Part shown: positions 1,618-52,883 of the stretch, piece after piece
How the letters are laid out: the number at the start of each line of letters is the position of its first letter
Numbering within the stretch: the stretch's first letter is position 1
Origin: Candidatus Omnitrophota bacterium
GTDB taxonomy: Bacteria > Omnitrophota > Omnitrophia > Omnitrophales > Aquincolibacteriaceae
Reading direction: 5' to 3'
NCBI GenBank assembly: GCA_903884815.1
Contig: CAISGE010000058.1
Coordinates: 6,583 to 70,582, forward strand
Length of the DNA: 64,000 nucleotides
Made by a program: the position numbers and the translations under genes
Notes under the pieces: model-generated
What the model saw: only the letters and a program-made list of their open reading frames with translations
The model's database searches: none
What the model was told of the DNA's origin: nothing

Positions 1618-1645
1618 CCCCTTCAACCTAGGTGGTTGAAAGGGG
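1618..1645 (+). terminator. imperfect hairpin directly after stop of 1354..1617 (no U-tract)
   Basis: CCCCTTCAACC (1618-1628) pairs with GGTTGAAAGGGG (1634-1645) with a one-base bulge. No T-run follows, so intrinsic-terminator status is weak. Confidence 0.25.
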
Positions 1646-1747
1646 CGATGCTCCAGTAATTTCTGCTCCATAAATCTATAAACTATCAATAAATAGCTAT
1701 GGATAACAATACATAGCAATCGAGCGATAATAAATACTGTCACACCC

Positions 1748-1776
1748 TTGAAATAAACAATTAAATCAAGCATATT
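1748..1776 (+). promoter_or_regulatory. candidate sigma70-like promoter for giant gene 1 (TTGAAA-17bp-CATATT; TATAGT 6 bp further)
   Basis: AT-rich 260-bp intergenic region. TTGAAA at 1748-1753, 17-bp spacer, CATATT at 1771-1776. The hexamers are weak. Confidence 0.2.
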
Positions 1777-1805
1777 TATAGTAGAAATCGAGGGTTCCAA
1801 AGAAT

Positions 1806-1885
1806 GGAGGCCTATGAAGTCGGGGGCCTCAATAGGGAGGTATGAAAGTTAATTTAGAAGGCTTATGAAGTCACAAAAACTATGA
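1806..1885 (+). promoter_or_regulatory. leader with three tandem SD-ATG-AAG mini-ORFs (12, 8 and 6 codons); last stop overlaps the giant start (CTATGATG)
   Basis: The motif GGAGG-N3-ATGAAGT occurs three times, at 1806-1820, 1836-1849 (GGGAGGTATGAAAGT) and 1857-1871. uORF1 is 1814..1852 (MKSGASIGRYES). uORF2 is 1842..1868 (MKVNLEGL), and its TGA overlaps the uORF3 ATG. uORF3 is 1865..1885 (MKSQKL), and its TGA at 1883-1885 overlaps the ATGATG of the giant ORF at 1882-1887. The giant start itself has no SD. Confidence 0.35.
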
Positions 1886-4800
1886 TGAAAAAAAGTATCA
1901 CCAAAATTCAATCGCATGGAGCGGTGACAAAAGCGATCGCGCTAGCGGTGGCGTTCGTCTTTACGTGTACGAGCGTGACGTGGGCGGATCCCGCGGCCGC
2001 GTCGAAGACGTCTCTTGTTGCGCCCGCTCCCGTCGGCGACTTGGCGCTTGATCTCGGGAAGGTTTCTTTGCCGGCAGAGATGGGAAAGATCGTCGAGACC
2101 TATCGCGGCACGGGAGACAAAACCGTCGTGCTCGTTCAGGACGCGCACTCGATCCCCGACGCGCAGCGCAGCATTCGTTCCGTTATCGAATTCTTTCAGA
2201 AGAGCTACGGTGTATCGACTGTTGGACTCGAAGGCGCGGCGAGTGAACTCGACGCTCAGATCTTCAAAAGTTTTCCGGACAAGGAACGTCTCGAAAGAAC
2301 TTTTGATCAGTACGCGGCGCGTGGTGAGTTGACCGGAGGATCGGCGGCCGCGATCTTTAGCAAGGCCCCGGCAGAGTATCACGGGATCGAAGACTGGAAG
2401 CTTTACGAGCAAGGGATTGCCCTTTATCTCGCCGCGACAAAAGCCGGGGAGGCGGCCGGGCAACAGCTCGCGGAAGAGGAGATGAAACTTGAGGGCGAAA
2501 AGGCGACGGTTTATTCCAAAGAACTTCTCGAAGTAGACCGCGCCTTGAGGGATTTTGAGGCAAACAAGATTGATCTTGCCGCGCTTCTCGTCAGCCTGAA
2601 CCGTTATCTGGCACCGACCGCCGGTTCCGAGCTTGCGGTTCTCACGGCAGAGGTCGATCGCGAGGGCGTTTCGGACATCCCCGTCGAGACCGAGATCAAG
2701 GAAATCGCGAACAAAGCGGAAGCGTTTCTGAAAGCGGATCCTTCGACGGCAGGCGACTTCAAAACTCTCAACGGAAAAGTCCAAGAGTTCCGGACTGCTC
2801 AGATCACGCCGCAGGCCTTTGCACTCTATCTCAAGGAAATCGTCAAGCGTCATGGCATCAAGGTTAAAGTCTCGGCCAAGCTTGCTCGCCTTGTCCAAGA
2901 CCAGAAGCTCCTCCGCGACATCGAAGGCACGAAGCTGTTTGGTGACCTGAAACGGTACGAGGATCAAGTTAAAGCATCTCTGATGCGACCCACGGACACA
3001 CCGGGTGTGGACAGGGTTGAAGCGATGCGTGAACTTGATCGCCGGAGCAGAGGGCTGGATCTGCTGAAACGTCTTGCGAAGTTGGAACTCAGTTTTGAGG
3101 ATTGGACGATTGTAAAAAGGTCAACGGTCAACGGTCAACGGTCAACGAACACTCCCGGTGTGGAATATCGGAGTGGCAACGGCAACACACCGGGAGTGGA
3201 TAGGGTTGAACAACTGTCGATCGATCCCATTCTGCTCAGCAGGCTTGAAGAGAACATCCAGTTCTACCGCGTGGCCGAACAGCGCGACGCCGCCTTCTTC
3301 AAAAATCTCTCGTCTCTGATGCAGAAGGATTTTCGCCGTACGCCTTACGCCTTACGCCAGACGCCGCGATCAGCTTTGCTGATTGCGGGCGGCTTCCACA
3401 CCGGCGGCATGACGCGCATTTTCAAGGAGCAGGGGATCTCTTATCTCCTGATCCAGCCCAAGATCGCCCAAATGCCCACCGAGCCCCTTTACCGCGAGCA
3501 CATGCAGGGCAAAGTTTCCTGGAGCAAATATTTCGAAGTCCGTGATGGCCAAGTTAATCTGTATGACGCGTTTGTCCGCGGGGCGAGAGACCAGCTGTTA
3601 GGGACCGTTGATCTCAAGAATCCTCTTTCCGCCGTACTCCCTACTCCGTACTCCGTACGCAAAGATTGGCGCGACCAGATCCTCCGCGACCTCGCGGCCG
3701 AGGGACGGATCACGGAAGCTTCGTCTTACACCCGCTTTATCGATGAGTTGTCGTCGTCCGCCGTACACCGTACTCCGTACGCCGAAGAGTGGCTCGCGAA
3801 CATTCGCAAGTTCGGCGAAGGGCTCAAACAGCTGAAATTGGGTGGCACCCTCACCGTCGCCAACATCCAACAGCTTGTCCGTTCTATCACAATTCCCGCG
3901 ATGGCCATTGGGGCGGAACTGAGTCCTGATTCGACGTCCCTACCACTGGTTCGTCCAGAGTCAGATTCCCGGAATTTGGCGCAATCGATTTCCGGAGATT
4001 GGAAGGATGAACCGGCCAAACCCGAATCCCGCGCGCCTGATGCCATCGTCCACAATGAAGGCGAGCGACGTGAATTGCGGGAAAAAAGAAAGCGAGAGAT
4101 CCTCGATTGTGATCTCATGAAAAATCTTCAGAGCCGTTATCCGCGTGTCATGTCCTTTGTGGCGGAATTCCTGGAGCCGGACCATATTCTTAAAGAAAGG
4201 ATCATGAACGAGATCGATGGTCTTGAGGATGCGGCGGTTCTGGCGGAAGTGAATAACGGCCTTAACCAGTTCCCAGAGACGAGAGGCGTGAACGAGTATG
4301 GGCTATACAATCCGGCGACGGTGGAAACCCTCTTTCTGACCTTAACCGCGGGAATTGAAGATATACCGCAAGTACTTGCATCGATCAGCGCGGTGGCAAG
4401 CAGTATGTCGATCGAGCGCATGAAACAGTCGAAGGATGAATCTTATGTAATAAAACGGATCGAACACTTTTATCTATTTTTTCACGCATTGGAGATTCTA
4501 TCCAAAACTCAGGGGAAAGCGCTTATCGATCGCTTTGAGAGAGCGCTCGCTGAAGCCCGCGCCGAATCCCGCACGCCAAAAGGGAAGGCGGTTGTGTCTG
4601 AGACGCCGTCGGACAAGGTCAGGGTCCCGGACGAGCCGTGGAAGAATTTTCCAAATTTCAGCAAGAACCTTCAGGCCGCGCTCCGGCAGATCTTTGAAGA
4701 AATAAATAACGCTTATGGGAACAAGATCTTGCTGGCCTCGATAACACCTGAGTGCTCTATCATGAAGGGAACCGCGATGCCCTATTCCGACGCGGACGGA

Positions 4801-7800
4801 TTGATCGTTATTCATGACTTTAAAACAAGCGAGGAATTGATCGAGGCTCAAAAGGTGCTGGAAAGGAAAATGACCCGCAATTTTATCAACGTGGCAGAAA
4901 AAGGCTTTGAAATGCCCTCGTGGATCAGCGTCGAAGAGATCAAAGCAGCGCGTAAGAAGCAGGCAGGAGCGCCGGAGCCTCACTTGGGTAAACAGATCTT
5001 GAGGAAGGCATCCTGGGCTGTTCATTATTTTTCCAGGGTTTATGAGGCGAAGGATACCATAGAGGCCCTCGCTATTCCTAAATTAGACAAGCCTGGTTCC
5101 CTGCCTCGTAATCAGAACAAATTGTTATACCGAGAAGACTTGTTTCGCCTCTGGCCCTCTCTGTCACCTGATTTGAAGAAATTGGTTTGGCAGATTCACA
5201 TGGCTTTAACGCCGCACGGTAATGTGGATAACGAACGGCCCGAGATAAGCGGGACTTATGAGCAGATCAAGGAACTGGAGAAGCTGGGCCTGCTTACTAT
5301 ACGGCGAGAAACTCCTTTTGAAAGGGACAGGAAGCCCGGAGAAAAGCCTTCTCGAATTAATGCCGTAGCGACATGGGTCCAAGTAACTCTTGACCTCAAG
5401 GAAGCGAACGGACAGAAAGGACTGTACCGCTCCGAATCCCGCACGCCAAAAGGGAAGGCGGTTGTGTCTGAGACGCCGGCGGCCCGCCCGGAAGCCGGCG
5501 GGCAAACGCACGCCATTCCTCCCGCCATGGCGGCGGCGAACACCGAGGATCTTGAGAAGCCGTTGGTGTTATCCGCCTCATTTAAAGTTGGGCCGGACGC
5601 GGATGAGGAGGGCTTGAGGAACATCTCAAGACAAGTCAATCGCGATCTCTTGCCTCAAGACCTGGAGATCCCTTCCGCCGGGCTCCGGCTTGAAAGGGAC
5701 CCACAGGATTTCCTGAATCTTGTCGAAGGCGATAATGCCGAGGAATCTTTGATCGTCGGCATTTTTATCCACAATGCTGTCGATGCGATCGCAGACTTGG
5801 CGGAGGCAGAGAAGCGGCCGATCGAAGGACGTATCACCCTGACCCTAAGCCGTCAGGGCAGGAACATTCTTGTCGAGCTTTCGGATAATGGAATTGGCAT
5901 TCCCCGGACAATTTTACGCCGGTTTTCAGAGGAGGGGCCGGTCACTACCAAGCCTCCGCCGCACACCGGAAAAAGACTTGGCGGGTTCGGGGTCGGGCGA
6001 GCGCAGATCTATGGCGTGGTCGCCGAACGTAAGGGCTCTGTGGAGATCGAGACGAGAACTTCGCGGGAAGGGGCCTGGAAAAAAGTGATCGATTACGGGA
6101 CCTATAGAGCCATGGGGCGGAATGGCGTGGGGTCACGGTTGCGTCCCTCCGGGCGTCAAACGGTCGGCACGACGATCCGCTGGATCATCCCGGCGAATCG
6201 CTCCGAAACCCGCGAGGTGACGACTTCTCCGGCGGTCACAGCCGAAGAGATCGAGGCGATAGATAGAGTCTCCGTCGCGATAAGGAGTCTTTTTCACGGC
6301 GCTAATAACCCCGTCGAAATTTCCGTTGACCTCGAGCATATCAAAATTATGCTTTTTTCTCTCGCCGGTATCCAGAACAGTGGTTACATAGCGAAATTCA
6401 TGGATAAGGTCATCGCAGGCCTGAAGACTCTAGGGGAGGAGTTTCGAGACGCGTCACGGGCCGGAACTTTAACCGCCGCAAACGCCCGTCAATATGGGAA
6501 AAGGCTTAGCGATCTTCTCGAGGAGATCAAACGCCGGGAAGCGAAACTGAAGATCATGCGAACGGAGTTGACCGGTACGCCTGAACGACAGCTTGCTGTG
6601 AAGAACAAGGCGACGGAGGAGGCGATCAACAAGAAGAGAGAGATATTCTCGGACATCTTTGAAAGCTTTGATCTGGTGATTGGAAAACTTCAGAGCCGCG
6701 TCGAGATCGCGACGGGCAGCACGGCATCCTACGCCTCTCAGGACGTGGCGCGAATCCTCGACGAGATTCGCGGCCAGTTCAAGAATGTGAAAGTGGAAAA
6801 CAAGCTGTCAGCTCCGGTCATGGTTCACGCCAACCCCTGGGCTCTGCACAGCGCTTTGTGGGTCATCATTGATAACGCTGTCTCATATTCAGAAGGGGAA
6901 GATGGGCAATACAAGACGGTCCAGGTCACGTTAGCCGAAGAAAACGGCAAGGCGAGGATCGATGTCAGGGATCTCGGAGCCGGCACAAATGATTTCAAGG
7001 ACATCGACTCGGTCACCCAAAGGCCACGGCCCTTTAACCGCGATTTCTCCAAACGTCCCGGCGGGACGGGGATCGGACTTACGGAGGCGTGGATCGTTCT
7101 GGTGAAAGCCATGGGCGGCACGATCGAGGTCCATTCCGTTCCCGGTGAGGGCACGACCTTCACGATCCGGTTGCCGATCCGTTCTGAGGGCAGGAACCGG
7201 AAGACCCCTGCGGCAGGAGGGGCCGAAAGCGTGCTGAAGGTGGACGGCTTGTTCGACACGAAGAAGATCCTTGAAATGGTGAACGCGGGCCTCTTGGATC
7301 ATATCAAAGTCTTTGTTTTTGATTACGACGGAACGCTGGCGCCTGACAGGAAACCCATGTCTTCTGAAATGGTGGAGGCCCTGCTGGCCCTTCTCGCTAC
7401 CGGCAGGAAAGTTATCATTCTGACCAACGCGGATTTTATAAGATTGAAAGTGAGTTTGGACGGTAGCGTTGCTAGGAACGGCAAAACGATACAGGCGAAT
7501 CTCAGGGCGGAGGATGAGCTCTGGGTGTATGGGGAACGTGGCGGAAGCGCGCGCCGGATGCGGCCCGCCGGGTATGAAAGTTTTCCCGATCACGCGATCG
7601 CCTATGCTCCCGGCGCGGTGGAGGCTATCACGGCGGCGTTCGAGTCCATCCGGGATAATTTTAAAGCAGACCCCGCGTTCGCTGGACAAGAATTGAAGCT
7701 CCAGGTATTCAATGATGTCGCCACGAATCCGTGGTGTTTTGTCCGGTTCAAGCTGATGGGCGACAGGGAAATACCCGAGAAAAAAATGATCCAGATCGGC

Positions 7801-30921: not shown

Positions 30922-30953
30922 TTATCATTAATTTCTTGATTGGAAATTAGCGT

Positions 30954-30997
30954 CGCCCTTGTCGGACATTAATGGAATGAAATAAACGACAAGGGCG
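30954..30997 (+). terminator. 11-bp stem / 22-nt loop hairpin 33 bp after the stop of giant gene 1
   Basis: CGCCCTTGTCG (30954-30964) pairs with CGACAAGGGCG (30987-30997). The large loop is atypical for an intrinsic terminator. Confidence 0.25.
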
Positions 30998-31013
30998 CAT
31001 AGCCTCCCCCTAG

Positions 31014-31046
31014 CGACCATTTCAACTGCGCTAGATGAAATGGTCG
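31014..31046 (+). terminator. perfect 10-bp stem hairpin between the giant genes
   Basis: CGACCATTTC (31014-31023), 13-nt loop, GAAATGGTCG (31037-31046). The nearest T6 run is about 28 nt downstream, so this may be a terminator or a regulatory structure. Confidence 0.3.
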
Positions 31047-31248
31047 AATGCATCTCTCAGATGGCCCATTTTTTAGTAAATCTAAAAAATATCTGCAACT
31101 CATTCCACCGTAATTACTTATGGTGTCCATCGAATTTGACACCTATGGGAAGTTATGTTACCTTTATAATGAACATTAAATAAGTGTTTAGTTCTGTCTC
31201 TCGTATAGAGAGAATTAAAATACCAGCCCAAAGGAAGTTACCGTTTAA

Positions 31249-49200: not shown

Positions 49201-52200
49201 ACCGATATGCGGCGAGGTCCATTTTACCTGGTGGCCACGCTCCTGGCGAATACCCGGGTTTTGGTCACGGGCTTTGAATATGACACCATGAACGGGAGGC
49301 GCTCGCGTCTGAGATTGGATCTGACGCATAGCGGCCTGCCTCTCCGCCAAGACATGGAAGAAGGCATTGAGCAGGATCTTAAACGCTATCTGGGAATGGA
49401 ATTTGTCCGCGTGAAGGGGGATGAGATTGTCCCGGTAAAACGCTCCGAAGGGCGGTTGGAGTTTTGGTCCTTTGGGGATTATGAGAAGGCGTTAAAGGGG
49501 ATCCCGGTTGCGAACCGAAAAGCATTCGACGATTTTCATAATGAAGTGACCAGATTTCTTGGATCGCATGGGGAATATGTGACTCAGGCGAATCTGAATC
49601 GCGTGATCGGGATCGTCCGGGACCCAGATCAACCCGAAATTGTCCGCTATACCGCCGCCAGGCTTCTGCGCCATTTTCCGAAGTTTGATTCGTCACTCGT
49701 CAATGAAAAGAATCGAAAGAATGCCTCCGGGCTTTTGAGTGATCGCGATTCCTTAGGTCTGGCAGGCAGTAGTTATCGCTTTGAAATGGAATTTAATGCT
49801 TTTCTGCTTCAGTCCGGGGGAACCATTGACGGGGGATGGCTGCTAGGAGGCGGCGTTTCGGCGCCATCGGCGCCCGTTTCTAATACTGCAAGCCTTCCCG
49901 GAAAGCGCACTGAGATGCGAAAAGACTTCGATCAGGCGGCTTTGGATGAATTCCTGAGTGCGTTGAACTATACGCTTACCGGCAATATTCGGCTTAGAAA
50001 ACGTGCGACGGTGAGCTCCTCCATTGTTGTTTCTCCGTCCACTCTGCGGTTTCCAAACCCTGCTGAAGTTAATATGACCGTCAGCATTAAAGAATCCGGC
50101 GAGGGCGCGATCCTTCCTCAGGCGGAGAAGGAATATTTCAGGGACTATTTGAATTCAACCTTCCGCCGTTCCTATGTGGAGGCCTTCGCGTTAGATGGAT
50201 ATGCTCAGTACACATTGTCCTCTTATGATCTCTCGGAAACGGATCAGTCCGTTCAGGTGAAGATTAAATTTCAGCTTCGCGCCGGTCCAGTTCATGAGCC
50301 TCGTACTGATTCGGGGGAGGCCGATGTCCTGCGTTTCGAGGCGCGAGCAGCGACAATGGATGCATTGAAAGACATGCTTCACGAACCCGAAAGGATGCCG
50401 GGGTGGAATTGGGTGGGCCGTGGCAAGGTCCAGCGCTTCATTAAAGTGGGCCCCTCGGTGGGGATCGTCCGTGTGACGGAAGACTCCTGGGGAATCGATA
50501 TCAGCGAGCCGGCGCGTGGCGCTGACCGGTTGACGATTACCTGGAGTGAAGAGGAAGGGTTGTGTGTCGGGCGTCAAGAGATCAAAGGCTTTCGTGGCAA
50601 AGGGAAAAGCCCGCTCGTGAGCTTCTCGTACGCAGAAAACGACACGTACCCACAGGACTTCAGTATTGCATTCACGCCGGAAGTTTACACCAAGGACACC
50701 GAAGGGCTTCTCCCGGAGGATAACCACGCGTCCACCACCCGGGGAGTGGGGCCTATGGGTTACACCTTTAAAGGCCGATCCGAGCACCGGCATTTTCCGG
50801 AAGCCGTGGCCGTTGATGACGAAAAAGCCGCAGAGATCGCGGCTGTGGTGGCGACGTATTTTCCTCCTGAGCTTCCTAAAGTCAAGGTCCTCACAAAACA
50901 GAACGCGAGTCAGTATCTGAGATACTTTTCAACGCTGGTCATTCGGATCAGGTCTTCAGGCATTCTGGATGCCTTGCCCGACCAGATATGGGTAAAAGAC
51001 ACGGGCGATTTGCTGCCGCGAATGATCGAGAAAAAGACCTGGTTTAACCGGCATGAGTTCGGGAATTTCGCGACAGTGGTCGGCGCAGTTAGTAGCGCTG
51101 AGACGGATTATCCGAGCGTCGCGGAATACCTGGCGGAGGTCGAGCTGAAGAAAAAAAGACCGGAAGAGATCCGTAAGGCCCGTGATAGTTACGATCTCGG
51201 GAGGATCCGGAATGCGGATGAGGTGCTGGGTATTTTTGCGGAGCTGTGCCGGGACCATTTTGACTTGTTCGAAGATAAGTGGAAGGAAACGAAAGCGGAC
51301 GGTAGTCTTAAATATGAAGCTACGGAGGACTCGCCGATCCCTTATCAATGGATCGTTCCGTACATGGTCCACAGATCTTTTGGCAAGGGGGGGAGGGAAA
51401 TCCGGGAAGCGGTCTTCAGAGAAGCGGTCAGGCGTACTGAAAAAATCTGGCCTCAGGTTCGAAAGTACACCCAGAAGATCTTTACCGAGATCCAGGCTGA
51501 ATGGGACGATGCCGTGCTCCGGCTGGATTTGCCTGCAGCTGCGCCAGTCGAGACGGCGCCAGTGCAACCTGTGCCGGAACTCGTCCAGGGCGATCTTTTC
51601 CGTGGAGAGCTTCGCGGCTCGACCGCGCAGGTCAAGACAGCGCTTGAAAAGTTATTTGATCGGAGCGAGAAACGGAACCTCGTTCCGGAGTGGGTGCCCC
51701 AAGAAAATATTCAGGCGATCGAAGGTGCGGCGGCTGAAGCGGATCATTTTTATTCTGTCCCGGGCCTCGAGGTTTTGATGGAGCCGGACCGGCGCTTCGC
51801 GGCGCGGCTATGGATCGCAGATCGGCTGATCAAGGCTTTCGAGACGCAGCAACCCAAGCCGGGCACGATCGAGAATGCGGCGCTGCGAACCGTGATCGAT
51901 TCCTTGAAGCGCTTTCAGCTGACGGGGACGGCGGATTCTGTTCTGGAAACAAAAGGAATCCACGTGTCACTGCCGGTCCTTATGCCGGAACAGTATCAAG
52001 AACTGGCGGAACTCGCGCCTGTCTTTCTCGCGTTTGCCGTTTCACTTAACGCGAAACTTTATTTGAATGTGAAAGGCCAGGATCCGGAAAAACTAAAAAC
52101 CTTATTTCTTTCCGCGGCGACCCGGAACGGTATTGAGGCAAAGGCGTTTCTTGAGATTGTGGCGGTCCGGGGTTCTCAAGCTTTTACGTCCGCAAAGGAG

Positions 52201-52464
52201 GGAAGGAAGAGGGACGCATTACTTGCAAGTCAGGTGGGGGACCTTCCCGAACAGGACAAGGAGGCAACGCTTTGGTTTAATAGTACGGAAGCTTCCCGGG
52301 ATATGAAGGTGCTAGCCGCGGAGATCACGGAAGCGCTCTATGCGGCGCTGGATCCGAAGATCCCAAGGAATAAACCGACAAATATCGCGGAGCATTTCGG
52401 AGAACTTACAACAGCGATCATGAATGCCATCCAGGCTTCTCTCAAGATACTCGTGGCTGCGTAA
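31249..52464 (+). CDS. giant modular membrane-associated multi-domain protein (7,071 aa), paralogous N-terminus to giant gene 1
   Basis: Uninterrupted 21,216-bp ORF. AGGAAG 11 nt upstream of the ATG. N-terminal hydrophobic signal-like segment RSVSLGVALSFLVTSVITNPGVGYG. TM clusters at about 33640-34380 and about 43300-43370. Confidence 0.85.
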   Translation: MTQSELFSQFWKRSVSLGVALSFLVTSVITNPGVGYGQTAGIDFARIFSAPVDRMAGLAGLPAEIGSVVETSIRQTLDHRPQTTEKNASPADRGPRTEDSLVILLQDAHANPTAQENIRQILRYLSGKYKNMTVAVEGSSGQLRPDYFDVIKNHPKAGEAILRDLSAKGEITGAELFAFEEAKKYAVRGTAYGENESGGRLTEYGVKDLNPVRGTPSAVRVMGVENTALYREDLELFRSVQKDFPSITKALLPVHAALDQEASRVLSPELRDFLKERERRKNGKFTASQTAGDPNIAAYSNYLAKQSNKVLAIDLSDAFEQLRYPNLMRLLALQKDKEITDPEAVTAAWEKFMIDLGNKISQEKEFLSALRYFAVTNGLVQSKRPAGELPFLYSKELLPRKLLEYLYHLKTSAGIRMEDYPVVLKSFRSLILRCEIDAAGLFEEMDSLEGLITAKLAVSDAEKALVKRFAFLERLEKALRLELDRKEYRALVAEKASLQEFTKASDLLAASLDRALKFYELAEKRDSVLLENALELEAEGVRRTADDGKSGLAPSALHLPLSEVIVLITGGFHTDGIKAILEEKGIQHAVVMPRITSTDHGEAYLKTMNGSNSDLSAYFNVANPFRTKQQAIIFKGIIENAAPSLVQDENLSVSQAANLVQDALTNHPLLANALRAEFAPVILSGAKDLSRDSSAGEPQNDELIHTLIITPVQFRPTLSGNSAIPAELLFSPDYESTVSTAPFSAAEVTMMPAGNIVRPVALSSKKVSLKSTRAETRSFKKADRSEKRDEPWFRAKRPLRDGAIAAAMIGASILLVLAHPGWYFVVRNGLGQLVGHLASSLLDKKFNLQRYFRAAAFGAGWALIIPLYAFWIPTLRIAPVAGAQLDLFGFAQIGVLAGFTILGEIFLPARDGEGTLGRFWRTLKFQTKNIIYAEGGFFIKQITYWTALSGLYYASVISFPAFSQLIVIAAMIFALPQALESVLTDQVKIGEVPARGKWQGLFLKYWPWFPAVFVLMSGLFNIIPLTSAVFLFGSAVVSHHLAKLVVVLKEKVFPHDEEPVLGAGNPAVAPEGMNLHYDASKKVWKGSEITWPSDAGKALRVHGLSWKRDREDPIQKVIAGLPPVNYWDPVSGEIQTEEAAIFFRRYRTRATWVVPEEEREAAFRLAALSGEEFRRDAVVRAAISSFRAYLPVRGVNELDRLLADLQDPAKVREVLTAPFMAEDMTRQLLFQAQKFGLGPIKSEAKNLKKYVLARLVLQEILHRLSLSDDLLPDASSLRRSGLNLTYNPEQDEQRSYIEARRESCLADLHELAHDLMLHSGTFTFAARVNVSGIEADYGPALAEELRSKINLIDDLEIPAEPLTAEMLQTAQESYRTFLVTLGEMREIMVRHQRSTGPDAPAESFSYQNLMDSLTHYESLIQEAMFPAIDHWLENLRTQEASQAAAKRNSEVKRLQLLPGFLAPGASSSAAQGGKRAETRRKPKDGLRGPKENLNSGIVRRLPVWVVGSLFGAMEGLYWLLNQAIFNLYAFIQLPYEDYTATIAYLVGPVIEEIKDRLILFKYGFMPRMSSTAAVLSSSAVFSVLHVLTYWAEDPILFAPRLIASFVAGVSLAASYRISGTLLVPIALHMIHNAKVDASNPLLWVWDALFMMISVFYVFREAFTPALQKQLVSPKVPTWRKLLVIRLLGATETKEAETALENFIAAKPSPSPDLSKAARRAIDQMNPRSLQASEKKNPVGRAETRIRGVIEGIQAMGDVRALAYLSSAIEGVQTLNDIQDPEVMDALKNAFQTGEIGEIENQVQKVRWWKIGTKNSFWKCARTIRDKLNELLNPQWSRFMLAVDQIDRKDVCQLVYKIMSGTDEPSFSSAEQALLESHHAIIDVFRDYPRLARLLGNLPPGLIIPEALSRRLNEVFNRLRSKELEFNFQRMRATFDAMLAAGRVIDGIDREPTLGFVIRIVRGEVNAGDILSHNERESLAEIEMLTGAAGLAEVIAAIGTDPTLIQKVEMRRSLLRMNQEIDRTMRELQTKFEHATGPEQERLRLLLEVAAKLGENKRQFLEELGEGKTNQFRTEMRSTLKFLVASAVDGMIWVGTLISFKRHYEAGVSNPPAVATAPSFRPASFDDPIYVVPSEKALRSKDILTQFIGDPRGVARIREMDEIVRREFAKEAGSLDAYIQFAKSGEERPLVVQQALWLASKMDPVWLKWLKERNTSIYSTDTPDYGYTRGSRFSGYFGEPRIRVSNEIKSPTQLAIVLAGHEGKHANRLPRDLRGAIWNSHIMLENLFRITKLNTEEVAAFNSARIFTNALLNVTPEPPNIGFNDASKLTYSYRDAGWAFALDGIITVGWYAVGLTFWGIGLRSMIRKDRQRAEWKKYGRYGPRPGQTHTRSGYGRAENRNTAGSVDGPVDWTPGLNLAILEYFGPRWLPVENRTSENLKNRQRIARLIIATSLNKRDYLTDDFEFVAPREVVVAEMEGFLDHMHANMRPLIAGLEDQYGAIADELERIVTASRPDVRDPEHAGFLLRSPGEFDLPARVETLTDAATGAREPEVGISGTSENTGNDRAETPKTEEERIDFQDLGNVLTAFFSPERVEGYFDRYDIIRIISAFVMSLGSFYYMDKSNIAAVVAMATLWNVLILIRSIITESVPPLLKKKGWSFSQMRWAKFTAQMFSSDISIITLVFSMFVNNHILSFFDMAKTSPGGLVVSGFVIGTMNGLHDAFFRVIQGDSRRTVILDFFRDYVMYTVPMLFVNILPFLSKPFFYSVFAKVIGETWAGMAEWQSESYLPVVAGATMEEMRKMLRQLPRWRWDDGDKPPCQRSLTLEDTTMIVRVSNKDEEGWAIQFRKIAEEGNEMLTLTWRPNEGLRVGRKIVEGLDPSKNPLASFSYGDDPEKPRNLRLVFSNGQGFTISQVSSAPRESGPAGFILENFLLSEVQLAVERAEVRDGVGSGAEIDRTGMRLTPRTLLASNGLMSAVAKHLAALPETDLNGILKTQGVKFPTGVRGRLLDTFQESGFKQALLGEFSRTMMAGGVVLVEADAGSLRRLTKNDKEFELVWTGEDGKIHVLERFYEYLNQITNEKERISVAAALFARQIAARLFLRILSQEDPQANTNPVLAPKILLSARAVEDFVFNSAPQKLEESQVDLRARGFIHQQMWERHEPMARHAAPRIDWGPNERRMKGLLNRLELMRDKLVTAGKVTPADRKEIDDIDASFTLTLSKKTADEIARKVRAATAVEIEAQRERLLRAYGVMQGRIVAAAKNLEERIISEKAYQETTSKANAQANGILNRLIKADLALIRAQLEMRVSFRNSLNDLINHFEEKVHELQWRSVHDQAQNEIKEVFVRGAASDDYLKVRMLKDVIDRQRRTGVTEHKESRWNHEETYYLATIKQLVVALADEEAAVTVNPKARRAWLLSYLRMRKVDFGGKADDAVMLDDIAAAIYLRQDIADAVMNKVGKWAHSRPAAGLDDAALRERELIAELIPEPDDVRPVERLKRIRYANLFNFLRSRDHVLETYDREERNAWQAIGFWNDIAYQLRNAKSDAMTASRLRNIRWDLAPIEEWVAHARVDEKTRIRELVAKARDNVKLGQFDIVLDAAAEAQTILQNDFIERIRRMSRYVGQHKQSIMAELDTGMKLIRSGIRENRRRDFGKALTRFRNFKARYLDGAKSTSEEPGYIRAKKNLTMAIAELAAAHQLNYVPAEDRLLIILKCLYRVWYGVEHKYETIPEMGPEADEIEAEVTARARQDLALRAEMRKVEFLGADHPIVRDLSAATTGAEVRKILPRLIPEAAERKAYLAFRVISRNAEKDEALEALGFWTDVSRSDAIDAFEASIPQKLGKPGSIKGIVCYPGNRTVAIEFRNGDSVVLGVKSGFYGSTKFENNIRGNPSASDIAAFPKILQGYLQNGNLTVRGVKADLPLEYLLPTTIQVEKLAQSLPDLEGVVVSDSAYQQYKEVQQKAAAAKEAKRVRDAIQAESAKAAEKVKLKDAEEKRLAKVALEQAQRAKWKTWIARWSLRVGVSVGLGIGCLVGYKILDLLKLDRQSRAARIIKQDVTSLDTDLVEYFGYYPSLEIPFQKNLARYEEALSHASLSQAEAMEKATGDYDLAAALAGIEKQQQALAAIPSDVFDWRAGYRQYLNLVYDLATKDIERRWKAAVKAGILAEADHRSLSVSLRELVKNSIQAEIGIAESQKLPVRPIAFMAGLLQRPHPIVEQLQHLKLKNDRPEKDLTVIASASVTLPYSLYARMVKYAVHQGGTAAVFLDATPFPGKPEILTMINPGGNTIDGKITGGNITVWYRGKPVGSAQASRRNFDIEGQKIHLLSAEGQPVRTIDVSKFPGLPRNELRVAVPAQASGRIWRLGMADVRSLPGAKTVDRLKNLEDTEARSLYTNLPEMLLSDDGKLEIAEESFNRGMEILQEKIRRLNATIKLIERNEPGSDLKDILGTHRDALVELDKILQKDPQAIVQRMANENIRFSVVFLEEGILKDGRRVNYGSEIVLGKLRKGLAMAQTMLAQAIEGLELNAFVEKVLGLPRREQSDFMAKSDELKRLDEDVAETVKAAIIQVSMFRKNVSDAEEFDAVMKEILVKIQTEGTPEDSEADGHAKFLDYMLFPEQVPSPEQYLAERRAHGKLLKAVVLVGEGLNATGHLAIVIGSDNEPPILVSITPENMKEVKKAIAESGAGGQVPILIRPAEAGSERSVKEEGAAGVAIELIVNPSADELAEYRRQEWIQSLWPKALARFSRGITHSVKLNMLPGQESDPDHDVGLYRTEIMTAERLQIYFDLFKIKTAELNDPKGGRDVGANLKDALWRRLYEDMEDEMRHIAEDPTLAGKRFRMRPEDRRSDKNSEYYVEMEMNGIPNDAEGQDHYRTPLGRIELTFRLMATLTAEAMAAKSGKPHAKFEVIYPGVRGPEDLDFIENEILPEARKFAAQRVAELSGETVEASARAIAAAEANIRFGMMIELSEAAVENRQALLTRPGYLDFSVGSNDLETSLADKASQAKGGPRITRDSPEISQAKGIIGEDMREIVTGWASDIDRMNREAAPGQEKTLSICGEKAADKEGRNFFGPFFNDLVQRFPRANLSRSMSVGSIPYTATLENLLRMPQYSGIGSVYSQPRQTELPLETGATEEAPEVEAGREVEALMQNLRPVMLVLEQYQSRYEREGFYDALHLLKINMRDGIGGLAEFQYLDRMLTAVSKEDKKPSADELYVDPDQRMNAAGLRTLLKKLKTHVKSGSISAEDIDLLEEAFKFMTSLQESFETASKKDPELFGHSLNLHNMEEFLKVYPLASGDPTRQAYDLISQYQAYAEKVFTITARFLFTVSQEKFPPEIASEKDLGVAMSDQSGKVFFMEQERKGISFYLGEGFVYGIGRYLEVKNARAWLEANPERLLEIFRVAAQRGLRISQSTQQAIEGFLASQGPIVPDEVQRAWMKDFDHILKSPGNAEYALIRMARLGVLSTLFPESVASRGVRAREGNHFDLFSDALRNWEMLGALPSQKNPVYSLAQETLHQEGTSPTGLSDLRLAFFLPSLTRGWDLNSSPASRLALVRSVLRPYANATEMKLKDFVGWTARLVRLLDKQASLLQHDFLTDAEVSRALEHLTKGMERSDMELLRQIYLMAFVARAGLPDSVDRGMGERQGLDSPLADLDTMSLAAQLLIAEEPVRAAASARIAEAEAVARQQMRDVAVESGSARLQAFERIRSGVLSDLANTGAMSRTLNAYLKVNRVLPDFRKKAVENVDLKIKKKLGVLADGTLDRDVATAFFDRYAQRVSKYYVASVDEATVIQDLLMLAHLESVHEEEGLEPAVSFRALPHHHQQAFEITFGFPMASPSALAVFLGILANRGFSITNGRLYPSGDENAPVIMKFSGVFEQGHVDAQAMRMQIATDVQSILEPETLPKKRATFFGRARDILSVFFLGERKNRFNRLADRFPEGFTVQSLKAEWEKAETQVERLPRDPSKNFTTFVISTDMRRGPFYLVATLLANTRVLVTGFEYDTMNGRRSRLRLDLTHSGLPLRQDMEEGIEQDLKRYLGMEFVRVKGDEIVPVKRSEGRLEFWSFGDYEKALKGIPVANRKAFDDFHNEVTRFLGSHGEYVTQANLNRVIGIVRDPDQPEIVRYTAARLLRHFPKFDSSLVNEKNRKNASGLLSDRDSLGLAGSSYRFEMEFNAFLLQSGGTIDGGWLLGGGVSAPSAPVSNTASLPGKRTEMRKDFDQAALDEFLSALNYTLTGNIRLRKRATVSSSIVVSPSTLRFPNPAEVNMTVSIKESGEGAILPQAEKEYFRDYLNSTFRRSYVEAFALDGYAQYTLSSYDLSETDQSVQVKIKFQLRAGPVHEPRTDSGEADVLRFEARAATMDALKDMLHEPERMPGWNWVGRGKVQRFIKVGPSVGIVRVTEDSWGIDISEPARGADRLTITWSEEEGLCVGRQEIKGFRGKGKSPLVSFSYAENDTYPQDFSIAFTPEVYTKDTEGLLPEDNHASTTRGVGPMGYTFKGRSEHRHFPEAVAVDDEKAAEIAAVVATYFPPELPKVKVLTKQNASQYLRYFSTLVIRIRSSGILDALPDQIWVKDTGDLLPRMIEKKTWFNRHEFGNFATVVGAVSSAETDYPSVAEYLAEVELKKKRPEEIRKARDSYDLGRIRNADEVLGIFAELCRDHFDLFEDKWKETKADGSLKYEATEDSPIPYQWIVPYMVHRSFGKGGREIREAVFREAVRRTEKIWPQVRKYTQKIFTEIQAEWDDAVLRLDLPAAAPVETAPVQPVPELVQGDLFRGELRGSTAQVKTALEKLFDRSEKRNLVPEWVPQENIQAIEGAAAEADHFYSVPGLEVLMEPDRRFAARLWIADRLIKAFETQQPKPGTIENAALRTVIDSLKRFQLTGTADSVLETKGIHVSLPVLMPEQYQELAELAPVFLAFAVSLNAKLYLNVKGQDPEKLKTLFLSAATRNGIEAKAFLEIVAVRGSQAFTSAKEGRKRDALLASQVGDLPEQDKEATLWFNSTEASRDMKVLAAEITEALYAALDPKIPRNKPTNIAEHFGELTTAIMNAIQASLKILVAA
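31480..31508 (+). repeat. heptanucleotide SSR (GACCACA)x3 (plus one degenerate copy upstream) immediately followed by an A7 homopolymer, in-frame in giant gene 2
   Basis: gaccaca at 31480-31486, 31487-31493 and 31494-31500, then g-aaaaaaa at 31501-31508. A degenerate GACCCTA lies at 31473-31479. Related GTACGGN x3 at 31807-31827 and GTACGCS-period-7 x4 at 31882-31909. Confidence 0.8.
35740..36240 (+). other. CPBP (CAAX protease/Abi) intramembrane metalloprotease domain embedded in giant gene 2
   Basis: Motif 1 PVIEEIKDRLILF (EExxxR), motif 2 FSVLHVLTY (FxxxH), motif 3 ALHMIHNA (HxxxN), all in a hydrophobic multi-TM context. Confidence 0.6.
45150..46300 (+). other. PEP-utilising enzyme-like module (phosphohistidine domain plus PEP-binding TIM barrel; PtsI/PPDK/PEP-synthase family)
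   Basis: NATGHLAIVIGS resembles the GGxTSHAAIxAR phosphohistidine motif. HDVGLYRTEIM resembles GLFRTEFL. FSVGSNDLETSLA resembles SIGTNDLTQY. The order matches PtsI. Confidence 0.55.
47560..48900 (+). other. GlnD-like HD/ACT-like segment (tentative)
   Basis: Placed only on weak motif resemblance: an HFDLFSDALRNW stretch and a C-terminal segment with an ACT-like character. No nucleotidyltransferase signature (G...GRGE..P.SD.D) was seen. Confidence 0.25.
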
Positions 52465-52805: not shown

Positions 52806-52883
52806 GTCCCCATCGTCTAGGTTGGTCTAGGACACCAGGTTTTCATCCTGGTAACAGGGGTTCAAATCCCCTTGGGGACGCCA
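52806..52883 (+). tRNA. tRNA-Glu (anticodon UUC), CCA encoded
   Basis: Cloverleaf read by eye: acceptor GTCCCCA/TGGGGAC, anticodon stem CCAGG/CCTGG with loop TTTTCAT (anticodon TTC), T-arm AGGGG-TTCAAAT-CCCCT, discriminator G, CCA. Nearly collinear with E. coli tRNA-Glu. Confidence 0.9.

Follow-up and report, generated by a model that had tools for sequence, protein, structure and literature searches.

Giant Omnitrophota genes with a conserved head and pentapeptide-punctuated modules: possible phase-variable polyproteins

Two Giant Genes and the Class to Which They Belong

The window analyzed here, a stretch of 64,000 nucleotides from a Candidatus Omnitrophota bacterium, carries two giant genes on the + strand, to which all coordinates below refer: ORF1 (1882..30921, 9,679 aa), composed of a head, about 22 modules and a conserved tail module, and ORF2 (31249..52464, 7,071 aa), composed of a head and about 15 modules and ending in ...LKILVAA. 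The coordinates and lengths given in the initial annotation are exact, and both ORFs are indeed stop-free, the sole stop of each being the terminal one. The paralogous N-terminal domain that it had noticed was recovered by BLASTP (ORF1 aa 17-553 versus ORF2 aa 13-621, 24% identity, E = 1.7e-23), and similarity between the two proteins is restricted to the N-terminal ~600 aa. Pfam tiling and a hydropathy scan also agree with its description of continuous mosaics of unrelated catalytic modules and transmembrane (TM) segments; the scan, which is a heuristic and not DeepTMHMM, identified at least five TM-like hydrophobic segments in ORF1 (the N-terminal one and at least four internal ones) and at least eight in ORF2. 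Neither internal repeats nor Pfam families matching RTX-type proteins were found in ORF1 or ORF2. Promoter and terminator scans at both ORF starts were uninformative, the flanks hold varied housekeeping genes with no conserved neighboring protease or secretion gene, and no recombinase is conserved near the giant genes.

The initial annotation knew of no family with this architecture, which proved wrong: giant multi-enzyme membrane-associated proteins have already been described in Omnitrophota, and the kind of protein that ORF1 and ORF2 represent is therefore known. They belong with the multi-enzyme “Archaeovorins” (West-Roberts et al., 2023, bioRxiv 10.1101/2023.11.21.568195) and with the “multi-enzyme” giant class, for which a co-occurrence “Module 1” of methyltransferase, HATPase_c and HAD was reported (Nielsen and Lui, 2026, bioRxiv 10.64898/2026.06.07.730766). 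It was right, on the other hand, that ORFs of this kind derive from metagenomic lineages and lack a functional description. The giant genes of these tiny bacteria, for which an episymbiotic or predatory lifestyle has been reported, encode up to 147,155 aa and rank with the largest known from any organism. Like the described giants, ORF1 and ORF2 join numerous unrelated enzyme domains in a non-repetitive series, among them methyltransferases, HATPase_c, HAD and PPDK/PEP-utilizing-like domains with none dominant by copy number, and they share an N-terminal signal, scattered TM helices and an N-terminal region suspected to be a peptidase. They are smaller than the cut-offs of at least 30 kaa (West-Roberts et al., 2023) and at least 10 kaa (Nielsen and Lui, 2026), which are operational and not biological, and they differ from the described giants in having no SecA_DEAD, glycosyltransferase, glycoside hydrolase, NUDIX, HEAT or dockerin matches; divergent SecA_DEAD, glycosyltransferase, glycoside hydrolase, NUDIX and C39/S8 peptidase domains gave no Pfam match at E ≤ 0.5 in any segment. 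The head is also of another type, Tiki/TraB/ChaN/EreA-like here versus C39 or S8 in the described giants. Term searches of the two preprint texts found neither a punctuation motif nor short-repeat phase variation. The giant class is already known; the head family, the punctuation motif and the heptanucleotide arrays are, as far as these term searches reach, features absent from the two texts, and the C-terminal signature is a further feature described here. Every named homologue comes from a Candidatus Omnitrophota/Omnitrophica MAG, as do nearly all of the titled loci (among 78), the remaining titled loci being labeled “uncultured bacterium” and, in one case, “uncultured Planctomycetales.”

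The Conserved Head

The ORF1 head (aa 1-733, 1882..4080) begins with a hydrophobic segment (aa 14-32, 1921..1977), a signal peptide or signal anchor followed by TWA/DP, and is closed by the motif site RRELR (aa 729, 4066..4080). Its paralogue in ORF2 (aa 1-777, 31249..33579), assigned by the BLASTP match and an alignment, has the equivalent segment at aa ~15-30 and is closed by a double site, RAETR/RSEKR (aa 773-788, 33565..33612), with a TM-like segment 10 aa downstream. The family to which these heads belong comprises at least 9,173 protein clusters. According to the predicted structure, the ORF1 head is a signal peptide joined to a Tiki/TraB/ChaN/EreA-like hydrolase fold, with an alpha/beta core (aa ~60-172 and ~455-562) divided by a helical insertion of ~320 aa; residues 672 through 720, the last in the model, are disordered, and the first motif site lies a little farther on. 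The alpha/beta fold is common to the Tiki/TraB/PrgY/ChaN/erythromycin-esterase superfamily, from which the head differs by the insertion. Invariant head residues (ORF1 numbering) are QDAH86-89, E117, E149, R468 and GGFH503-506, and H89, E117, R468 and H506 are invariant in 112 heads; judging from the signature of the superfamily, the latter four may correspond to its His/Glu/Arg/His catalytic or metal-binding residues. No Pfam or NCBIfam model reached threshold on the head, PDB profile searches with it returned nothing relevant, and sub-threshold profile matches were obtained in 2 of 12 head cores, to Erythro_esteras (E = 0.003) and ChaN (E = 0.012).

Modules and Motif Sites Along the Two Proteins

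Past its head, ORF1 is punctuated by RAESR (aa 893, 4558..4572) and RSESR (aa 1183, 5428..5442), after which two GHKL (HATPase_c) modules (5443..7194; 35.6 and 58.6 bits, over the cut-off) occupy one inter-motif segment each, on either side of RSETR (aa 1440, 6199..6213). RSEGR (aa 1767, 7180..7194) separates them from a HAD-like module (7195..8190), for which the annotated phosphatase is visible as a DxDGT motif, the Hydrolase_6 match being weak (E = 7e-4) and under the cut-off. RAETR (aa 2099, 8176..8190) forms the boundary with the Methyltransf_28 module, a segment of 1,184 aa (8191..11742; 81 bits), and RSETR (aa 3283, 11728..11742) precedes an HPr module (24.8 bits). There follow RSEVR (aa 3635, 12784..12798), RSESR (aa 4082, 14125..14139; TM-like segment 18 aa downstream), RSEAR (aa 4542, 15505..15519), RNERR (aa 4910, 16609..16623; TM-like segment 13 aa downstream), RSEMR (aa 5122, 17245..17259), RSETR (aa 5610, 18709..18723) and two RNEMR sites (aa 5940, 19699..19713; aa 6200, 20479..20493), the second of which precedes the protein-kinase-like module (20494..22401), where the Pkinase match is borderline at 32.9 bits against a cut-off of 31.7. 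A double site with a 29-aa spacer, RAEIR...RAETR (aa 6836-6869, 22387..22488), is followed by a Tat signal, MSRRNFLKG, which begins four residues (TSSV) past the second site and occupies residues 5-24 of its inter-motif segment; this Tat module, for which no homologues were found among 5.8 billion proteins, is closed by a second copy of the double site, RPEIR...RAETR (aa 7855-7888, 25444..25545). RSETR (aa 8214, 26521..26535) stands between two methyltransferase modules, and RSEMR (aa 8576, 27607..27621) follows. At RAEKR (aa 8791, 28252..28266) the J-domain profile starts from the very next residue (DYYEVLGV), profile positions 1-63 corresponding to segment residues 1-63, and opens a J-domain and coiled-coil module (28267..30072; 94.7 bits). 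RGELR (aa 9393, 30058..30072) opens the tail module of 282 aa (30073..30918), which ends in ...VGTAA.

In ORF2, RAETR stands at both ends (aa 1475, 35671..35685; aa 1740, 36466..36480) of the 265-aa CPBP/Rce1-like intramembrane protease module (35686..36480; 46.8 bits). Beyond it lie RTEMR (aa 2072, 37462..37476; TM-like segment 4 aa downstream), RAENR (aa 2395, 38431..38445), RAEVR (aa 2943, 40075..40089), RAEMR (aa 3758, 42520..42534) and RNELR (aa 4350, 44296..44310), followed by a PEP-utilizing-like and GlnD nucleotidyltransferase-like region (44311..49455), in which an internal RPEDR (aa 4848) is probably a chance match. The GSNDL signature of the PEP-utilizing module can be recognized there, its PEP-utilizers_C match being weak (E = 0.006) and under the cut-off. 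The remaining sites are RSEGR (aa 6065, 49441..49455), RTEMR (aa 6220, 49906..49920), RFEAR (aa 6362, 50332..50346), RSEHR (aa 6510, 50776..50790) and a double site, RGELR/RSEKR (aa 6785-6809, 51601..51675), which opens the last module.

The domain list of the initial annotation was thus largely recovered, with GHKL ATPases, J-domain, CPBP protease and SAM methyltransferases (besides Methyltransf_28, three PrmA-like Rossmann matches of 21-25 bits, around the cut-off) standing, and the kinase, HAD and PEP-utilizing assignments holding at the level given above. Beyond that list, HPr, GlnD_UR_UTase (28 bits), the internal Tat signal and an NAGPA-like match were found, and NCBIfam returned nothing on ten unannotated segments. 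Each inter-motif segment contains at most one enzyme family; the exception is an ORF2 segment bounded by a site that is probably fortuitous. As judged from sequence comparison, the cargo is almost wholly different between relatives that share the head: homology to other giants covers 99% of head residues versus 14% of body residues, a pattern more in keeping with a carrier of exchangeable cargo than with a single integrated machine. The “self-contained signaling or modification machine” proposed earlier is neither supported nor contradicted, and the anatomy points elsewhere, to separate protein-sized units delimited by a conserved pentapeptide.

The Punctuation Motif and the C-Terminal Signature

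The pentapeptide that divides the body into these protein-sized modules is R-[S/A]-E-x-R. Scored as RxExR, it occurs 23 times in ORF1 and 17 times in ORF2 versus 3.5 and 3.2 times in shuffles, 327 times in 67 homologous giants versus 71 ± 8 expected, and 1,089 times in 144 independent family representatives versus 177 expected, an enrichment of 4.5-6 fold; in these representatives the first site lies at a median of aa 676, just past the head. Flanking ORFs shorter than 1,500 aa contain 47 sites versus 35 expected, and KxExK, RxDxR and other related patterns are not enriched, so that a general proteome or compositional bias was rejected as the source. Inter-motif spacing has medians of 358 and 307 aa. 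A number of segments reach great lengths (about 1,200 aa), and some matches, ORF2 aa 485 and 4848, are probably fortuitous. The sites are placed at module boundaries: TM-like segments begin within 20 aa after a motif in 14% of cases versus 4% at random placement, and homology blocks between giants begin no more than 20 aa from the end of a motif in 44% versus 8% at random. Pro, Ser, Gly and Ala abound in the flanks, and the alternatives are A, P and T at position x2 and L, V, A, M and T at position x4.

At the nucleotide level the motif has the consensus c-CGY-TCC-GAR-nnG-CGg, and conservation around it ends at 16 nt. Synonymous bias is evident at R1 (CGY 83% versus 41%) and S2 (TCN 96% versus 60%), as well as at the preceding codon and the x4 codon, whereas the E3 and R5 codons follow background usage and all six Arg codons and all TCN codons are present at the motif. 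A hairpin (CCGY...GCGG) was rejected since there is no covariation (172 pairs observed versus 170 expected), and an internal translation start at the x4 codon was rejected since x4 includes ACG, GCG, TCG and many non-start Leu codons and no Shine-Dalgarno-like signal lies upstream.

The giants also share a C-terminal signature, ...[K/Q]-[A/S]-A. The C-terminus is AA or SA in 118 of 144 family representatives, and in 27 of 40 ORFs of at least 1,000 aa versus 13 of 600 ordinary ORFs; RxExR falls within the last 12 residues in 25 of 133. The tail module of ORF1 has homologues at the extreme C-terminus of other head-bearing giants, and its structural model was of low confidence (pLDDT 58) with no significant Foldseek match. 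A C-terminal module common to ORF1 and ORF2 was rejected, as neither BLASTP nor phmmer detected similarity and only the last residues match the common signature. No tmRNA gene, whose tag was to be compared with the ...AA C-terminus, was found in the window or in 60 loci.

Heptanucleotide Arrays in the Heads

Each head contains four period-7 tandem arrays. Those in ORF1 are (GGTCAAC) x4.1 at 3119..3147, a period-7/14 array (CGCCTTA) at 3334..3366, and CCGTACT x3.9 (3632..3658) and CCGTACA x3.4 (3761..3784), the last two in low-pLDDT loops; those in ORF2 are ACAGACC x4.7 (31470..31502), a x4.3 array (31517..31546), GTACGGC x3.1 (31807..31828) and CCGTACG x4.1 (31880..31908), with an additional period-8 array at 31407..31435. 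Across the family, the density of period-7 arrays is 4.5 per 10 kb within heads versus about 0.4-0.5 elsewhere, and their units are not conserved. The GGTCAAC array has four copies in the window and three in an independent ENA contig (L079) that is 99.9% identical over 11.7 kb, in which the missing unit throws ORF1 out of frame near codon 476. With 3-5 copies the arrays are short, and this is the single polymorphism seen; a search of JGI metagenomes for further GGTCAAC copy-number variants gave no matches.

A Polyprotein Reading and Its Alternatives

We see even prospects for a reading in which ORF1 and ORF2, adjacent members of a very large family restricted to Omnitrophota, are phase-variable punctuated polyproteins, with a conserved head, fast-changing exchangeable cargo, and the motif as processing site. 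Each giant would start with a Sec-type signal or anchor and the conserved ~650-aa head, continue with 15-23 protein-sized cargo modules, each bearing at most one recognizable enzyme or its own signal anchor or Tat signal, and close with the ...[K/Q]-[A/S]-A tail. Such a precursor would be cut at R-[S/A]-E-x-R into individual proteins, possibly by its own head, and the cuts would free the N-termini needed by the Tat signal and the signal anchors, while heptanucleotide slippage in the 5' head region could make expression switchable. Fast turnover of the cargo together with conservation of the head suggests that the head acts as carrier or processor for exchangeable cargo, and this cargo may act at or in a host cell, given the lifestyle reported for the phylum. 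The ORFs, their phylum, the head fold, the enrichment and placement of the motif, the C-terminal signature, the repeat enrichment and one natural copy-number variant are observed; proteolysis at the motif, a protease role for the head, phase variation and a role in host interaction are what we infer. The stronger proposal of a universal cleavage code (R-S-E-x-R, with a C-terminus of the ...R-A-E-V-R-K-A-A type), combined with processing by the Tiki/TraB-like head, dozens of independently targeted products and heptanucleotide switching, is more doubtful and is offered tentatively.

Several points count against cleavage. N-terminal export would place the ATP- and SAM-dependent modules outside the cytoplasm unless they were released or delivered elsewhere; the synonymous-site bias of the motif is not predicted by a purely protein-level signal; and, as to cleavage by the head, the same fold is also found in non-proteases (esterases, a haem binder) and sequence support for the superfamily is weak. 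We know of no protease with specificity for R-[S/A]-E-x-R. It is on the whole unlikely, in our view, that the giants instead stay uncut, as multi-enzyme proteins that thread through the membrane or are anchored in it, with the motif as a structural or interaction element of linkers, for instance a hinge, a membrane-proximal charged patch or a place where a chaperone, translocon or partner docks. The position of the motif in flexible Pro/Ser/Gly-rich linkers would suit such proteins, as would the fact that no protease has been identified, and proteomics of the Kizina type is reported to detect the V. archaeovorus giant. However, linkers need no R..E..R register, with small and hydrophobic residues in positions 2 and 4, that stays invariant over thousands of divergent proteins. 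An internal Tat signal and internal signal anchors just past the motif are difficult to exploit unless an N-terminus is free, and the motif also occurs near the extreme C-terminus, where no module follows to be linked. As for peptide evidence, trypsin cuts at both Arg residues of the motif, so that tryptic data are blind to natural cuts after Arg.

The motif might otherwise be a nucleotide-level seam, used for or left by in-frame exchange of cassettes between paralogous giants, with the peptide as a by-product. Synonymous-site bias of the kind seen (R1, S2, x4 and the codon ahead of the motif) would be expected of a seam, and so would the extreme cargo turnover against conserved heads, homology blocks starting at motifs, and the several paralogous giants found per genome, often in tandem. 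We nevertheless hold this improbable: E3 and R5 show background codon usage and the full range of Arg and TCN codons is used, the alternatives at x2 and x4 look like selection on amino acids, 16 nt of conservation is short for recombination with no covariation or flanking signal, and no conserved recombinase lies nearby. That the continuous ORFs are artefacts of assembly or annotation, or decaying pseudogenes, the real genes being of ordinary size, is hardly credible. The frameshift of ORF1 in one independent contig and the interruption of some homologous heads in MAGs might be read in that direction, but stop-free stretches of 29 kb and 21 kb are impossible by chance, the conserved head stays in frame in the window's reading, and thousands of relatives of 2-8 kaa carry the same head, motif and C-terminal signature. 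The independent contig itself, apart from the missing repeat unit, continues the ORF, which is split into 476 aa and more than 5,331 aa and not into ordinary-sized genes.

The polyprotein reading has precedents. MARTX toxins of Vibrio and relatives are very large secreted proteins whose strain-variable, unrelated effector modules are freed by their own protease at short inter-module sites. The likeness, a conserved carrier with shuffled cargo, is one of functional analogy only: MARTX toxins are characterized by glycine-rich RTX repeats, type I secretion and a cysteine protease domain that is activated by InsP6 and cuts after Leu, whereas ORF1 and ORF2 have no repeats, no matching Pfam families and no adjacent ABC/MFP genes. 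Other precedents are viral polyproteins, RgpA/Kgp/HagA of Porphyromonas gingivalis, which are processed at Arg/Lys, and the P97/P102 adhesins of Mycoplasma hyopneumoniae, which are cut at S/T-X-F|X-D/E. Known systems and the giants have in common short conserved junction motifs between protein-sized units, and one ORF yields several products in the former; cuts at Arg residues or at defined motifs thus have precedents in bacterial surface proteins. These bacterial examples, however, yield a handful of domains of one functional system, versus 15-23 unrelated enzymes here, where cleavage is a proposal.

Cleavage of the giants was proposed earlier, with no information on the cleavage points (West-Roberts et al., 2023), and the motif may show, for the first time, where Omnitrophota giants are cut. 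It tells where to cut the proteins in silico, which peptides to seek and which residues to mutate. If cleavage is real, it would represent a general bacterial polyprotein strategy and change how “giant proteins” are counted, annotated and interpreted, and the repeat arrays would equip these very costly genes with a switch at the level of the population; one gene would then amount to an operon-sized, phase-variable, exchangeable array of effector cassettes for host or prey interaction.

Phase variation of the giants would proceed by slipped-strand frameshifting, as in contingency loci with short-sequence repeats. The giant genes share with such loci 5' tandem repeats whose unit length three does not divide, in a gene for a surface or secreted protein, and a natural copy-number frameshift; they differ in that the arrays are short (3-5 units) and several per gene. 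Heptanucleotide repeats also occur as the STRR of cyanobacteria, which are mostly intergenic with conserved units, whereas the units of the giant-gene arrays differ from gene to gene. Interrupted heads at three further loci are suggestive rather than clean evidence: L035 contains Ns, L046 stops after a proline/C-rich run, and in L062 an in-frame stop lies within an array-bearing insertion.

Two giant genes of a known Omnitrophota class

ORF1 (1882..30921, + strand; 9,679 aa) and ORF2 (31249..52464, + strand; 7,071 aa) each contain a sole stop codon at their end, and the coordinates of the initial annotation, which had called them as two consecutive same-strand giant ORFs, proved exact. The paralogous N-terminus proposed for the pair was recovered by BLASTP (ORF1 aa 17-553 against ORF2 aa 13-621; 24% identity, E 1.7e-23). 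Apart from this N-terminal domain, here called the head, BLASTP found no similarity between the two proteins, and self-comparison found no internal repeats in either. Pfam tiling confirmed most of the domains that had been read from the sequence, namely two HATPase_c, Methyltransf_28 and three PrmA-like methyltransferases, DnaJ (94.7 bits) and an Rce1-like/CPBP protease (46.8 bits). Among the others, Pkinase was borderline (32.9 bits; cut-off 31.7), and the HAD and PEP-utilizers_C matches were weak and below the cut-offs, although DxDGT and GSNDL signatures are visible. Tiling also added HPr, GlnD_UR_UTase, NAGPA-like and internal Tat signal matches to that list. Most of ORF1 and ORF2 has no Pfam or NCBIfam match. 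A search of 5.8 billion proteins detected no homologue of the module carrying the Tat signal (22489-25458, 990 aa), and most cargo modules are orphans like it.

The architecture had been thought to lack any characterised family, but giant multi-enzyme, TM-rich Omnitrophota proteins have already been described. West-Roberts et al. (2023; bioRxiv 10.1101/2023.11.21.568195) reported 'Archaeovorins' that contain methyltransferase, peptidase and pyruvate-phosphate-dikinase domains, and Nielsen and Lui (2026; bioRxiv 10.64898/2026.06.07.730766), in a study of 916 long proteins, defined both a 'multi-enzyme' class and a module of co-occurring methyltransferase, HATPase_c, GNAT, HAD and HD domains. 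ORF1 and ORF2 are new, smaller members of this known class; their head differs from those of the giants described earlier, and they are without the SecA_DEAD, glycosyltransferase/hydrolase and NUDIX content that defines Archaeovorins. Homologues of the head all come from Candidatus Omnitrophota MAGs. A scan of one genome per species gave 78 loci; those record titles that name a phylum name Omnitrophota, with one exception ('uncultured Planctomycetales'), and several paralogues per genome are common.

Four features of the family are new, statistically robust and family-wide: an RSExR punctuation, a Tiki/TraB-like head family, a [K/Q][A/S]A C-terminus and head-specific heptamer arrays. None of them turned up when the texts of the two preprints were searched for polyprotein, linker, junction motif, phase variation and heptanucleotide repeats, which returned a general cleavage proposal only, and a full-text literature search for the pentapeptides gave nothing relevant.

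A pentapeptide that delimits exchangeable modules

The motif was first spotted as recurring RSETR, RAETR and RSEMR while the translations were being read. As RxExR it occurs 23 times in ORF1 and 17 times in ORF2, against 3.5±1.9 and 3.2±1.7 in shuffles, and 327 times in 67 homologous giant ORFs (172,874 aa; 71±8 expected). An independent set of 144 family representatives (475,829 aa) contains 1,089 against 177. Eight other ORFs of at least 1,500 aa are also rich in it (59 vs 11), and 296 ordinary flanking ORFs have 47 vs 35, many of these within fragments of other large ORFs. The control patterns KxExK, RxDxR, RxExK and ExRxE were enriched less or not at all (three at 0.7-0.8, ExRxE at 1.6). 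Across the 144 representatives the density is 2.66 per kaa in bodies and 0.66 per kaa in heads, and the first motif falls at median residue 676, immediately past the head. The consensus is R-[S 70%/A 20%]-E-[L/V/A/M/T]-R, with Thr preferred at position 4 in the lineage of the window, Pro/Ser/Ala/Gly-rich sequence upstream, and Ser/Thr followed by acidic residues downstream.

Motifs are spaced at medians of 358 aa and 307 aa in the two data sets, and double sites under 50 aa apart form a secondary peak. Between motifs, nearly every segment of both ORFs holds at most one enzyme family recognisable by Pfam; only one ORF2 segment, with GlnD matches and weak PEP-utilising ones, departs from this, and its upstream boundary is probably a chance motif match. 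The DnaJ profile begins at residue 1 after RAEKR, the Tat signal (MSRRNFLKG...) spans residues 5-24 in the segment following RAETR, and the CPBP protease stands alone in a 265-aa segment with RAETR at either side. TM-like segments start within 20 residues past 14% of motifs, compared with 4% for randomly placed ones, and the sequence after a motif looks like a protein N-terminus. Homologues in other family members cover 99% of head residues but only 14% of body residues, and 44% of body homology blocks start within 20 residues of a motif end (8% at random). Thus, the motif marks the limits of evolutionary units, with a conserved head and rapidly exchanged cargo.

Two repeated junctions were also seen in ORF1. 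Near-identical 29-aa double-motif spacers (22387-22488 and 25444-25545) bracket the 990-aa Tat-signal module, and one 15-residue peptide follows each of two motifs (4558-4605 and 5428-5475), encoded by identical DNA at both; both pairs look like recent local junction duplications.

Possible roles of the motif

The giants may be polyprotein precursors whose modules are freed at R-[S/A]-E-x-R; this is the reading that we prefer, although we regard it as evenly poised between right and wrong. The precursor would be cut at the motif into individual modules, plausibly by the conserved head hydrolase, and release would provide the free N-termini that the internal Tat signal and signal anchors require. 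The conserved part of the family would then be a carrier or processor and the exchangeable part its cargo, and expression of the giant genes might be gated by heptamer slippage. We infer cleavage from the motif, protease activity from the head, and host interaction from cargo turnover. Processing by N-terminal peptidase domains was suggested earlier for other giants; the polyprotein reading agrees with that suggestion and would supply the cleavage site missing from it.

The main alternative, somewhat doubtful in our judgement, is that the giant stays uncleaved and the motif serves as a linker or interaction element. It is unlikely, though less so than an artefact or pseudogene (very unlikely), that the motif is a nucleotide-level seam for in-frame cassette exchange. 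Such a seam would fit the synonymous-codon bias of the motif, with consensus c-CGY-TCC-GAR-nnG-CGg (sites 6199-6213 and 11728-11742, for example): R1 is encoded by CGY in 83% of motifs vs 41% of non-motif Arg-Ser dipeptides and Ser by TCN in 96% vs 60%, the preceding codon ends in C in 139 cases vs 81 expected, and the x4 codon ends in G for Val, Ala, Thr and Ser. However, codon usage at E3 and R5 equals background, base-pair covariation is absent, and there is no conservation beyond the 16 nt.

For polyprotein precursors, the nearest functional analogies would include MARTX toxins, in which a conserved carrier bears a shuffled effector array and processes itself between modules; RTX repeats, a cysteine protease domain and type I secretion, which define MARTX toxins, were looked for in the giant pair and not found. 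Motif-defined polyprotein processing is also known from viruses, P. gingivalis gingipains and M. hyopneumoniae adhesins, which may likewise be counted among the nearest analogies.

The head domain

An exhaustive profile search retrieved 9,173 cluster representatives of the head (5,522 at E <= 1e-30), N-terminal without exception, in proteins of 0.5-8 kaa. Essentially invariant over 112 heads are Q86-D-A-H89, E117-G118, E149, R468 and G503-G-F-H506, an arrangement that we take to be the Tiki/TraB signature. Superfamily matches at the sequence level were sub-threshold (Erythro_esteras, E 0.003; ChaN, E 0.012), and PDB profile searches matched no superfamily member. The head can reasonably be regarded as a hydrolase, with protease one possibility among several in the Tiki/TraB superfamily.

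Heptanucleotide arrays

An independent contig (ENA ERZ27313066 k141_396203) is 99.9% identical to positions 1619-13319 of the window, and carries three copies of GGTCAAC (1501-1522 of that contig) where the window has four (3119-3147), with only 3 other mismatches in 11.7 kb. Because one unit is missing, ORF1 is frameshifted there at about codon 476. In that assembly ORF1 is split into 476 aa and > 5,331 aa.

Tandem Repeats Finder identified four period-7 arrays in the ORF1 head (3119-3784), and four plus one period-8 array in the ORF2 head (31407-31908). The other ~46 kb of both genes contain no array of at least three units bar one in-frame 15-nt array. At least three of the four ORF1 head arrays lie in or beside low-confidence loops of the structure model. 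At 67 homologous loci, period-7 arrays number 4.5 per 10 kb in heads, 0.43 in bodies and 0.5 outside; in head-bearing giants they are limited to the first ~2.1 kb of the ORF, where they are about 10-fold enriched, and 25 of the 67 heads have at least one, with unrelated unit sequences. A constant period with variable sequence, a 5' location and a one-unit polymorphism are hallmarks of slipped-strand contingency loci, here in short arrays and with one polymorphism. Among short repeats in other parts of these genomes, period 7 dominates too.

Some homologous heads in MAGs are interrupted: L062 (5411-5570) by an in-frame stop inside an insertion bearing heptamer arrays, L046 (~11600) by a stop after a proline/C-rich run, and L035 (~9990), where Ns are present. 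The interruptions may reflect either off-phase alleles or problems of assembly.

C-terminus and genomic context

The proteins end in AA or SA in 118 of 144 representatives, most of the remainder probably being cut by contig ends; ORF1 ends in ...AVGTAA (30901-30918, +) and ORF2 in ...KILVAA (52444-52461, +). Among locus ORFs of at least 1,000 aa ending at a stop, 27/40 have an [A/S]A end, vs 13/600 ORFs of 150-999 aa. The last ~20 residues give the logo ...[L/I]xxE[Y/M/F][R/L/Q/K]Axx[A/R/E][V/I]x[K/Q][A/S]A, and 25 of 133 have RxExR within the last twelve residues, 3 or 5 residues before the C-terminus (e.g., ...ARAEVRKAA). The conserved [K/Q]-[A/S]-A tail could be a secretion, PDZ-recognition or degron-like signal. 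Several other family members end in a module homologous to the last module of ORF1 (282 aa), in an alignment that begins at the motif; a low-confidence structure model of this module had no significant Foldseek match.

No conserved neighbouring gene of head-bearing giants was found. Same-strand tandem giants recur at five loci (L007, L031, L052, L066 and L069, within the first ~9.8 kb of each), where another motif-rich giant ORF ends just upstream of the head. The ORF1-ORF2 spacer contains an 11-12 bp inverted repeat (CGCCCTTGTCG ... CGACAAGGGCG, ~30950-30998) with a ~22-nt loop and no T-run, which the terminator scan did not flag. Upstream of ORF1, two + strand ORFs (2-409 and 431-1297, the latter without a Pfam match) may encode outer-membrane beta-barrel proteins, to judge by a signal peptide or an aromatic C-terminus (…LIYVF; …QFLFPKS).

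A tRNA-Glu(ttc) gene (52806-52883), which lies about 340 nt past the ORF2 stop, overlaps a large serine recombinase gene (52843-54360, - strand; Resolvase, Recombinase and Zn_ribbon_recom) at the 3' end of the latter. From 52806 to the window end (64000) GC is 0.41-0.49, down from about 0.55 in the giants. The overlap and the GC fall indicate that a mobile element or prophage has probably integrated at the tRNA beside ORF2; no evidence of a functional link with the giant pair was seen. In several other genomes the head of the giant gene is preceded, at 200-1,300 nt, by a tRNA gene (L008, 9706-9779; L039, 9270-9346; L045, 9409-9484; L053, 9305-9377; L051, 8391-8746).
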